Positions 4,704 to 6,352 of a DNA stretch of 29,645 bases are shown one piece after another. The stretch comes from an archaeon (GTDB lineage Archaea > Nanobdellota > Nanobdellia > SCGC-AAA011-G17 > GW2011-AR20). The stretch is from the NCBI GenBank assembly GCA_021107205.1, contig JAIOTD010000041.1:1-29645 (forward strand), given 5' to 3'. Numbering within the stretch: the stretch's first letter is position 1; the number at the start of each line of letters is the position of its first letter. Both the position numbers and the translations under genes were made by a program. The notes under the pieces were generated by a model that was not told the origin of the DNA, did no database searches, and saw only the letters and a program-made list of their open reading frames with translations.

Positions 4704-4784
4704 AATTTAATTATTAACCAAATAACAATATAATTCTTCATCTAAAACTTTCAAGCAACTTAAACTTATTCTTAGTATTAATCT
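4704..4784. repeat. Degenerate direct-repeat copy of the hemK 3' end (matches about 5828-5922)
   Basis: 4717-4743 is identical to 5841-5867 (27 nt), 4749-4758 to 5881-5890, and 4759-4777 to 5897-5915, with two small deletions. The copy still reads DEELYCYLVNN* against DEELYCYLVKM*. Confidence 0.93.
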
Positions 4785-4851
4785 TGGGTGACCACAAAAT
4801 AAGCTAAATGTAGTCACCTATAAACAAAAAGTTTAAATATGTAGTCACCTA
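4785..4851. repeat. Left terminal repeat array: three 12-bp sites (one inverted) around the fic TATA box
   Basis: TGGGTGACCACA 4785-4796, TGTAGTCACCTA 4809-4820 and 4840-4851; TTTAAATA at 4832-4839 lies between the last two. Confidence 0.9.
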
Positions 4852-4861
4852 TTATATCAAT

Positions 4862-5809
4862 ATGCATATAGAAAAAAGGAAATCAAAAAATAAGATAAAA
4901 TATTATCTTGCACATTCCTATAGGGAAGGCTCTAAAGTACATAAATTCAGAAAATATTTGGGACTGGATTTAACAAAACAAAAGCTAAAAGAAAGAAAAC
5001 AAATAGCAGAAAAACTTATTCTGGAAGAAATACACAAATACAAAATCATAAAGGATCCTCTAAAATTTGAGCTTTCAAAGAAAGAAATAGATTCTATAAA
5101 AAAAACAGAATCTGAAATTCCATTAAAAATATCACATTTATCAAAAAATGAATGGAAGATTTTCTCTGAAATATTTACTTATAACACAAATGCAATAGAG
5201 GGAAGCAAACTAAATCAAAAAGAAGTTAGAGATTTATTAGAAAAAGATAAATGGCCAGATAAATCTAAAGAAGATATAGCAGAAGCATACGGTGTTGATG
5301 AAGCTATTCAGTTTATAAGGGGGGCAAAAGAGCATATTTCAATAGAATTAATCAAGAAAATACATAAAATTGTTTTCAAAAACTCAAAACAGTTTGCAGG
5401 GAAATTCAGAAAGAAAAATGAAGAAGTGGTTGTTATGGACAATAAGGGGAATATAATTCATGAAGGTGCACCGCAGTCAAGAATAATACATTTATTGAAA
5501 GAATTAACGGAATGGTATAACAAGAATAAATCAAAATATCCTGCAATAGTTCTCGGGGCAGTAATTCATAACCAATTTGAAAATATTCATCCTTTTGCAG
5601 ATGGAAATGGTAGAGTGGGAAGAATTTTATTGAACAATATTTTAATTAAATATGACTTGCCTCCAATAAGCATAGATTTTAACAACAGAGCTGAATATTA
5701 TTCTTCATTAAGAGCCTATGAACTAAATAAGGATTTAAAACCTACAATTGACTTATTCATTAAAGAATATAAGGAATTAAAGAGGAGATTAGGTGACTAC
5801 AAAAAATAA
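4862..5809 (+). CDS. Fic family protein with N-terminal basic beta-hairpin-like domain
   Basis: Canonical HPFADGNGRVGR Fic motif and TYNTNAIEGS motif; N-terminal MHIEKRK..KYYLAHSYREGSKVHKFRKYLG. Confidence 0.93.
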   Translation: MHIEKRKSKNKIKYYLAHSYREGSKVHKFRKYLGLDLTKQKLKERKQIAEKLILEEIHKYKIIKDPLKFELSKKEIDSIKKTESEIPLKISHLSKNEWKIFSEIFTYNTNAIEGSKLNQKEVRDLLEKDKWPDKSKEDIAEAYGVDEAIQFIRGAKEHISIELIKKIHKIVFKNSKQFAGKFRKKNEEVVVMDNKGNIIHEGAPQSRIIHLLKELTEWYNKNKSKYPAIVLGAVIHNQFENIHPFADGNGRVGRILLNNILIKYDLPPISIDFNNRAEYYSSLRAYELNKDLKPTIDLFIKEYKELKRRLGDYKK

Positions 5810-5825
5810 AAAATGTAGACACCCA
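5790..5825. repeat. Right terminal repeat: inverted pair of 12-bp sites with 12-bp spacer, overlapping the last fic codons
   Basis: TAGGTGACTACA 5790-5801 and TGTAGACACCCA 5814-5825. Confidence 0.9.
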
Positions 5826-5830
5826 ACAAT

Positions 5831-6352
5831 TTACATTTTCACCAAATAACAATATAATTCTTCATCTGGAACTTTTAAAATTTCAAGCAATTCAAACTTA
5901 AACTTATTCTTAGTAATTAACTTATCAACTTTCTTCTTATTAGTCAAAGAACTAAACACAATCAAAACAACACCATCTTTCTTCAAATATTTACCAACTT
6001 CAGAAAAAAACCTACCAATAATCTCATAACCAAACTTTCCACCAGTAGTGTTTAACCTAGATTCTTCATCTTCTAACACATCCAAAGGCAAATATGGTGG
6101 ATTAAAGATTATAGTATCAAACTTTCCTTTTACTTTTGAGAATAAATTTGATTTTTTAGATTTAACTCCTTTTTTTTTCACAAATTCAACACATTCTTCA
6201 TTAATATCTACTGCTGTTACATCTTCACTATTTTGCATAGCTGTTATTGCTTGTATTCCTGAACCTGTTCCAACATCTAAAACTTTACCTTTTGAGTATT
6301 TAGCTACATACTTTTCCAATAAATGTGAGTCTTCTAAAGGTTCGTATATCAT
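5831..6352 (-). CDS. HemK2/PrmC-like SAM-dependent methyltransferase (putative release factor glutamine methyltransferase)
   Basis: YEPLEDSHLL N-terminus, VLDVGTGSGIQA SAM motif, FNPPY motif. Confidence 0.9.
   Translation of the reverse strand: MIYEPLEDSHLLEKYVAKYSKGKVLDVGTGSGIQAITAMQNSEDVTAVDINEECVEFVKKKGVKSKKSNLFSKVKGKFDTIIFNPPYLPLDVLEDEESRLNTTGGKFGYEIIGRFFSEVGKYLKKDGVVLIVFSSLTNKKKVDKLITKNKFKFELLEILKVPDEELYCYLVKM

Follow-up and report, generated by a model that had tools for sequence, protein, structure and literature searches.

Mobile insertion cassettes (MICs), such as MIC231 of Bacillus cereus and the qnrD and qnrS2 mic elements, are transposase-less cargo elements bounded by inverted repeats of insertion sequence (IS) type. 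They are flanked by a target duplication and are related to ISs of the IS4/IS1634 superfamily (PMC3913671). Typical members of the IS1634 family make duplications of 5-6 bp, unlike IS1634 and IS1549, whose duplications are long and variable (8-514 bp; PMC2266710). Among Fic AMPylases, CccR of Yersinia pseudotuberculosis (PDB 7xux) carries a DNA-binding domain in the same polypeptide and has been shown experimentally to repress its own gene (PMC9755527), while SoFic and PDC-S04 are single-gene defence candidates in PADLOC. The present analysis concerns a fic gene found in contig JAIOTD010000041.1, contig 17 of an archaeal genome of 642 kb (GCA_021107205.1, 72 contigs, 84.5% complete). This contig was studied over its whole length of 29,645 nucleotides, hereafter the window. 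The gene lies between two palindromic 36-mers, and the unit running from palindrome edge to palindrome edge (4785-5827) is called the cassette.

The reading we favour, with a probability of about 0.6, is that of a one-gene Fic cassette that was acquired, regulates itself and follows the design of an IS1634-family IS. An earlier note, drawn from the sequence of the window alone, had described a mobile element and knew of no described element of this form. The latter statement was too strong, since MICs have been described; the cassette is a variation on known kinds (MICs and IS1634 elements), and the observation is confirmed while the interpretation is partly supported. Like the MICs, the cassette associates a transposase-less cargo gene with IS-type repeats and a target duplication. 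However, a cognate IS with matching ends was not found, the cargo protein itself retains an N-terminal domain of transposase type, and the repeats are palindromic, predicted operators within the promoter. Moreover, the duplications at fic loci (27-93 bp) do not always abut the repeats.

The Fic enzyme and the palindromes around its gene

The fic gene (4862-5809, + strand) encodes a protein of 315 amino acids (AlphaFold 2 model with a pLDDT of 87). Fic is the only domain that Pfam recognizes in the cassette (74 bits, E 1.8e-20), which carries no DDE transposase. The catalytic motif HxFx(D/E)GNGRxxR is present as HPFADGNGRVGR (residues 243-254, 5588-5623) and is invariant in 37 homologues. An inhibitory motif, TNAIEG, occupies residues 109-114 (5186-5203), with I112, E113 and G114 also invariant in the 37 homologues. 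Class II Fic proteins, as reportedly defined by Engel et al. in 2012, have an inhibitory (S/T)xxxE(G/N) helix that precedes the core within one polypeptide. The closest solved structures among the PDB matches are AMPylases of the FICD type. By these motifs and matches the gene product belongs to class II of the Fic AMPylases, the auto-inhibited ones, and is of the defence-or-toxin type represented by SoFic and PDC-S04, with predicted AMP transfer, in agreement with the AMPylase-type cargo proposed earlier.

The resemblance to SoFic and PDC-S04 comprises the Fic core (SoFic at 1.2e-33 over profile positions 64-260 of 361, PDC-S04 at about 1e-33) and the presence of adjoining genes for defence-type nucleases. 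The archaeal protein differs in that the match stops short of the C-terminal third of the SoFic profile, and its score with the NCBIfam SoFic model is 50.8 bits, the cut-off being 550. The archaeal clade is likened to these systems from sequence, and no anti-virus activity is known for it. Relatives with genomes below 1 Mb, such as G007, can carry up to 11 Fic-family matches, some of them in tandem (L014, L115, L121), a large paralogue load for genomes of this size.

The left 36-mer, or distal promoter palindrome (4785-4820, + strand), is composed of the arms TGGGTGACCACA (4785-4796) and TGTAGTCACCTA (4809-4820) separated by an A-rich spacer of 12 nt. The right 36-mer, or 3' palindrome (5790-5825, + strand), reads TAGGTGACTACA, N12, TGTAGACACCCA. 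It covers the last five fic codons and the stop codon (the protein ends in LGDYKK) and lies 5 nt past the stop codon of a hemK-like gene on the opposite strand. The inner arms of the two units are complementary at 12/12 positions. The order of the elements, their coordinates, the 12-bp spacers, the inner arms and the end of fic within the right repeat were thus all recovered as first described, and far above chance. When up to two mismatches were allowed, five of the six half-site matches in the window fell at the fic locus, with 1.1 matches expected and none of 100 shuffles reaching six. At one mismatch, the genome of 642 kb yields one extra match only, to a lone half-site on a different contig.

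Two other points of the first description hold in part. The 36-mers had been taken for inverted repeats, as their perfectly complementary inner arms indicate, but the two units are also 77% identical as direct copies, like-oriented A-rich spacers included. They are as much direct as inverted copies because each is itself a palindrome. The promoter placed between the left repeat and fic is marked by a TATA box, TTTAAATA (4832-4839, + strand), 30 nt 5' of the ATG, but a third half-site had been missed. This proximal site, a perfect TGTAGTCACCTA (4840-4851, + strand), follows the TATA box and precedes the start codon. Since the TATA box at -30 sets the predicted start of transcription at the ATG, the 5' arm would be untranscribed, and a panhandle joining the two ends of the mRNA through the perfect inner arms was ruled out.

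On the hemK strand, the loop of the 3' palindrome (5802-5813, - strand) reads T6-A-T6 and begins 18 nt past the hemK stop codon. The corresponding hairpin is stable (-15.8 kcal/mol, z -6.8) and may now serve as a hemK terminator. Hairpin ends of the IS200/IS605 type were also considered. IS200/IS605 elements make no target duplication, and the duplication found here (see below) rules them out.

Predicted operator sites and the N-terminal domain of IS1634 type

The first 62 residues of the Fic protein (4862-5047) form a separate domain of beta-sheet and helix, encoded 5' of the Fic part and called the N-domain here. Its AlphaFold model shows three antiparallel strands and a long helix (pLDDT 86-87). 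No Pfam or NCBIfam model matched it, even at E values up to 10. A profile of the first 70 residues retrieved at least 388 protein clusters from a library of 1.8 billion proteins. In addition to Fic, the N-domain is fused to a class II aminoacyl-tRNA synthetase (aaRS)-like core, to a phosphoenolpyruvate (PEP)-utiliser (mobile) domain and to a membrane protein. The resemblance of the fic N-terminus to IS1634 transposases, which had been suspected before, was substantiated by profile comparison: hhalign gives a probability of 92% (E 5.9e-7) with a profile of the IS1634 N-termini, the alignment starting at residue 1 in both, and hmmsearch scores 21.6 bits with L226. Profile comparison thus shows the N-domain to be homologous to the N-terminus of IS1634-family transposases.

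The sites were surveyed at 37 fic loci and in 240 genomes of the order, with the reversed pattern as control. The palindrome pattern occurs in 42 of the 240 genomes (reversed control, 0), almost always beside fic. Across the 37 fic loci, half-sites are located at -75, -53 and -22 from the ATG with the TATA box at -30. The -75/-53 arms belong to group-A loci, the half-site at -22/-21 is found in nearly all, and a variant layout consists of one palindrome straddling the TATA box. Wherever the N-domain occurs, inverted half-sites with the core G(A/T)C(C/T)ACA enclose the TATA box, each at a set distance from the ATG. The non-Fic N-domain genes retrieved obey the same geometry: all five (P0103/L251, aaRS-like; P0073/L252, PEP-utiliser; P0095/L255, membrane protein; P0140/L257; P0134/L258) display inverted half-sites of matching type on both sides of the TATA box. 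Furthermore, half-site variants track the N-domain subfamilies.

Taken together, these data make it most likely that the palindromes are promoter and operator sites tied to the N-domain rather than to Fic. The operator geometry, and the fact that the sites follow the N-domain into non-Fic genes, point to autorepression. The N-domain would bind the half-sites bracketing the TATA box, and the protein would repress its own promoter. This promoter is presumably leaderless, as the TATA box lies 30 nt before the ATG and sets the predicted start site; the proximal half-site, between TATA box and ATG, has the position expected for a repressor site. CccR resembles such a protein in combining a Fic AMPylase with a DNA-binding domain (here predicted). 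However, its DNA-binding domain is C-terminal and unrelated, whereas the archaeal module is an N-terminal beta-sheet domain for which binding is predicted. CccR is moreover a secreted bacterial effector of the type VI secretion system, unlike the protein of the archaeal cassette.

At about 22 of the 37 loci, and in all three reading frames, a homologue of the 3' site overlaps the stop codon of fic. The site is translated as GDY/GDH or as VTT/VST, or else provides the stop codon. Because the overlap occurs in three frames, the constraint on this site bears on DNA and not on protein. The second palindrome may be one more binding site that was carried over from the IS plan.

Several points weigh against self-regulation by a DNA-binding N-domain. 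We infer the binding itself from the arrangement of sites and domain. The top Foldseek matches of the N-domain are arm-binding domains of integrases and, with a Z of 4.7, the AP2 domain, and these lie below significance (E about 0.8, Z 4.7-4.8). The covariation of site and domain may partly stem from shared ancestry. Finally, the closest orthologue clade (L006 type) has no 3' site, nor have the two checkable non-Fic genes, and the site is thus dispensable.

Nine of about 48 palindromes are solo sites of the same type (L118, L125, L126, L136, L238, L242, L244, L245 and L249). They have no nearby fic and no common context, and flanking repeats, sought as a mark of excision scars, were not found. 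They may be remnants of lost cassettes or sites used in trans. Their existence, the direct orientation of the two units with their like-oriented spacers and the tandem cassettes of some genomes would suit a site-specific recombination module of integron or pdif type, excised as a circle through the two direct palindromes and re-inserted at solo palindromes. However, no recombinase gene lies among the open reading frames (ORFs) adjoining fic, which encode the hemK-like methyltransferase, the DEDDh exonuclease, the Mrr nuclease and unassigned products, although no search was aimed at integrase genes. Target duplications are not expected from site-specific recombination, and solo sites without flanking repeats or common context do not fit either. 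The palindrome arms are presumably unlike attC R'/R'' boxes or Xer sites. Such a module is very improbable.

Two loci show rearranged promoters. In L248 (G169:C1, 3075-3200), a full fic-type promoter array of three half-sites has no fic behind it. It leads directly to another promoter, of the ACGTCTACA type, and to an ORF of 161 amino acids with the N-domain only; another fic cassette is located 1.8 kb further along. This arrangement suggests that cassettes were stacked or replaced. In G010, a further insertion with inverted ends of its own, ATGCATTGTTGC...GGGACTTT, interrupts the spacer within the palindrome of the fic promoter, and the two halves are found on different contigs (L229, G010:C18, at about 2955-3000; L010/L231, at the start of G010:C21). 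Viral vectors were ruled out: the palindrome pattern matches 15 IMG/VR contigs, none with Fic or an N-domain and most of them GC-rich, for which reasons they look like chance hairpins.

IS1634-family transposases are present in 18 of the 240 genomes, and some of these elements have sites placed as in the fic cassette. In L227, two copies of the site flank the TATA box, at -86 and -19, and an inverted one covers the stop codon of the transposase gene; the true terminal repeats lie 30-75 nt farther out. L225 combines a palindrome at -22 with a half-site that covers the stop codon of its transposase gene. L219 carries ATGTAGTGCC, which resembles the fic half-site, at -66, and repeats it in direct orientation about 31 nt before the ORF ends. 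In L279-L282, palindromes lie between TATA box and ATG, and L279 has in addition a related site near the stop codon. The cis layout of promoter sites and stop-codon site is therefore common to at least two IS1634-family elements of the order (L227 and L225). From this common plan and the N-domain homology, the fic cassette looks like an IS1634-type element with the catalytic part exchanged for Fic. It differs from the family in the lack of a DDE catalytic domain and of outer terminal repeats and in having one copy per genome. Long variable duplications, known for two family members, are a further likeness, and set the cassette apart from typical members.

Other results count against such an ancestry. 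The outer terminal inverted repeats (TIRs) of the IS1634 elements of the order are unrelated to the motif, no GGTGACYACA-type site was found in these elements, and L219 and L226 show merely similar short cores. At 14 IS1634-family loci both the TIRs and the inner sites differ from the fic palindromes, and no cognate IS was found in the 240 genomes.

One alternative is a non-autonomous IS of MIC type, in which the 36-bp palindromes are terminal repeats cut in trans by an IS1634-family transposase, yielding the long duplication. The homology of the N-domain, a left end containing the promoter and a right end containing the end of the ORF (as in the two or more IS1634-family elements mentioned above), the range of the IS1634 and IS1549 duplications and the occurrence of IS1634 transposases in the order all argue for it. 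Nevertheless, a transposase with the same ends, for which the earlier note suggested a search, was seen neither in this genome nor in the 240 genomes of the order, nor was any IS with these sites or ends. No IS1634 transposase at all was found in this genome (NF033559, no match; 84.5% complete) or in the four other genomes with duplications described below. Genomes with both palindromes and IS1634 genes are as frequent as expected (6 observed vs 5.4). In this genome the motif is restricted to one locus, and the cassette has the composition of its host (G+C of the window, 28%), which does not suggest a working transposon. The L006-type clade lacks the right-hand palindrome and yet is spread over many families, and such sites serve as plain promoter elements of non-Fic genes. 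In view of this balance, and of the insert edges discussed below, this alternative is unlikely.

Transfer between genomes and flanking duplications

Orthologues of the fic gene with 72-81% amino acid identity are found in families f1, f4, f8, f11, f13, f15, f22, f27 and f28, within one DPANN order of Woesearchaeota-like archaea. In the same genomes the hemK protein is merely 49-56% identical, and fic lies beside hemK in none. In the maximum-likelihood tree, 14 sequences from nine families intermingle in one clade (support 100/98) with branches of 0.06-0.26, and the Fic protein of the window adjoins two f22 sequences. The named records closest to the gene belong to Woesearchaeota, Pacearchaeota and Nanoarchaeota. 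This distribution shows a horizontally mobile, self-contained cassette that, on tree and identity values, arrived by horizontal transfer. Vertical conservation at the hemK locus, the objection raised in advance, is not observed in these families, whose members carry fic at unrelated sites. The notion of a mobile element therefore stands for the fic unit, which moves between genomes. It does not stand for the 36-mers as transposon termini: they are not demonstrably such, are fixed relative to the ATG and follow the N-domain. Within this genome the cassette is a single fixed copy, and different genomes have it at different sites.

The fic gene converges on the hemK/Mtq2-like gene (5831-6352, - strand), which encodes a small methyltransferase with an NPPY motif (Pfam MTS, 1.5e-13). 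The gene is intact: orthologues align over residues 1-172 of 173. The right direct repeat (5828-5921, 94 nt) is the functional 3' end of this gene, that is its last ~30 codons and 3 nt past the stop. The left direct repeat (4704-4784, 81 nt) is a decayed, non-coding duplicate of it, with 76 identities, about 3 substitutions and ~13 nt deleted in lengths that are not multiples of three (z about 20-22). These features show that the cassette landed 3 nt past the hemK stop codon, that about 91 bp of target was duplicated and that the left copy then decayed. The insertion at a gene 3' end without disruption, as proposed earlier, is thus borne out.

The long target-like repeat is also no isolated case, since direct repeats flank four further fic loci, or five of the 33 testable loci in all (78/93, 27, 66/69, 46 and 33 nt; z 9-24). 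None was found among 26 other long ORFs of the window, and none that is real among about 198 comparable genes of metagenome loci, the one borderline control repeat being low-complexity sequence. Where it could be assigned (window, L013, L113 and L236), the repeated segment is the 3' end of an intact neighbouring gene. The short duplications (4-10 bp) looked for just outside the palindromes at other loci were not seen. In two of the five duplicated loci, the window and L013, the insert is bounded within 0-4 nt by palindromes on both sides, as a non-autonomous IS would require, but in the other three the duplications lie 7-148 nt off the palindromes, with extra DNA in between.

Target sites without the cassette were sought among relatives. 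In genus g11, one and the same insertion is present in G022 and G010, and in G018 the same gene ends normally, without fic or palindrome. In G178, a congener of the L236 genome, the gene end has no fic, but the downstream DNA differs. Against an insertion at the present site, it must be said that an empty hemK site was not found in the collections, as they hold no close relative of this genome. Same-family relatives show no synteny around hemK, and the best hemK match in JGI metagenomes is 63-71% identical. The single public run that contains the region, examined for signs of excision, is a marine sediment metagenome, in which it is represented by low-depth Logan contigs that break at the repeats.

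The variable length and offset of the duplications are also compatible with another alternative. The palindromes would be mere operators without IS ancestry, the repeat the kind of scar that transposase-free capture generally leaves in tiny DPANN genomes (by illegitimate or homology-facilitated recombination, or by repair of staggered breaks) and the likeness to IS1634 a convergence. Congeners differ in the DNA that follows the target genes, which suggests recombination hot spots, and operator function alone accounts for the conserved promoter geometry. However, this leaves unexplained the stop-codon site in three frames at about 60% of loci, the exact palindrome-to-palindrome inserts in two of five cases, and the N-domain and site layout common with IS1634 elements. 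We regard this explanation as quite unlikely.

Insertion route, gene neighbourhood and implications

For the favoured reading, a self-regulating cassette on an IS1634 plan, two insertion routes come to the fore. The larger share of probability, though less than half, goes to transposase-free capture of a fragment broken at the palindromes. About a third goes to an IS1634-type transposase acting in trans, a route considered because the family is known for long, variable duplications, and the remainder to other routes. A bolder proposal is that the DPANN Fic cassettes are an IS1634-derived family that exchanged the DDE part for Fic but retained the end-binding domain and end sites. IS1634-type transposases would still mobilize them in trans, and the long duplications would be accounted for in this way. 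In a wider sense, N-domain and operator might constitute a portable 'end-binding tag' fused to unrelated cargo enzymes. This proposal remains doubtful.

To the left of the cassette, two genes form a pair (2543-4660): an Mrr-type nuclease with a Cys-rich, membrane-anchored tail (2543-3877, - strand) and a DEDDh exonuclease whose start is at 4660 (3881-4660, - strand). Both were identified by Pfam and PADLOC. PADLOC matches of the pair include DEDDh and the candidate systems PDC-S48 and PDC-S02, which places the cassette at the edge of a defence-like islet.

The analysis ties a widespread gene of toxin or defence type in ultra-small archaea to a transposase N-terminal module, with predicted DNA binding, and to an IS-like arrangement of sites. 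It offers a concrete route for the exchange of single genes among genomes with almost no mobile-element genes. It also suggests a probable function, sequence-specific DNA binding and self-repression, for an unannotated domain of 60 amino acids. A role of this domain within IS1634-family transposases had previously not been described.

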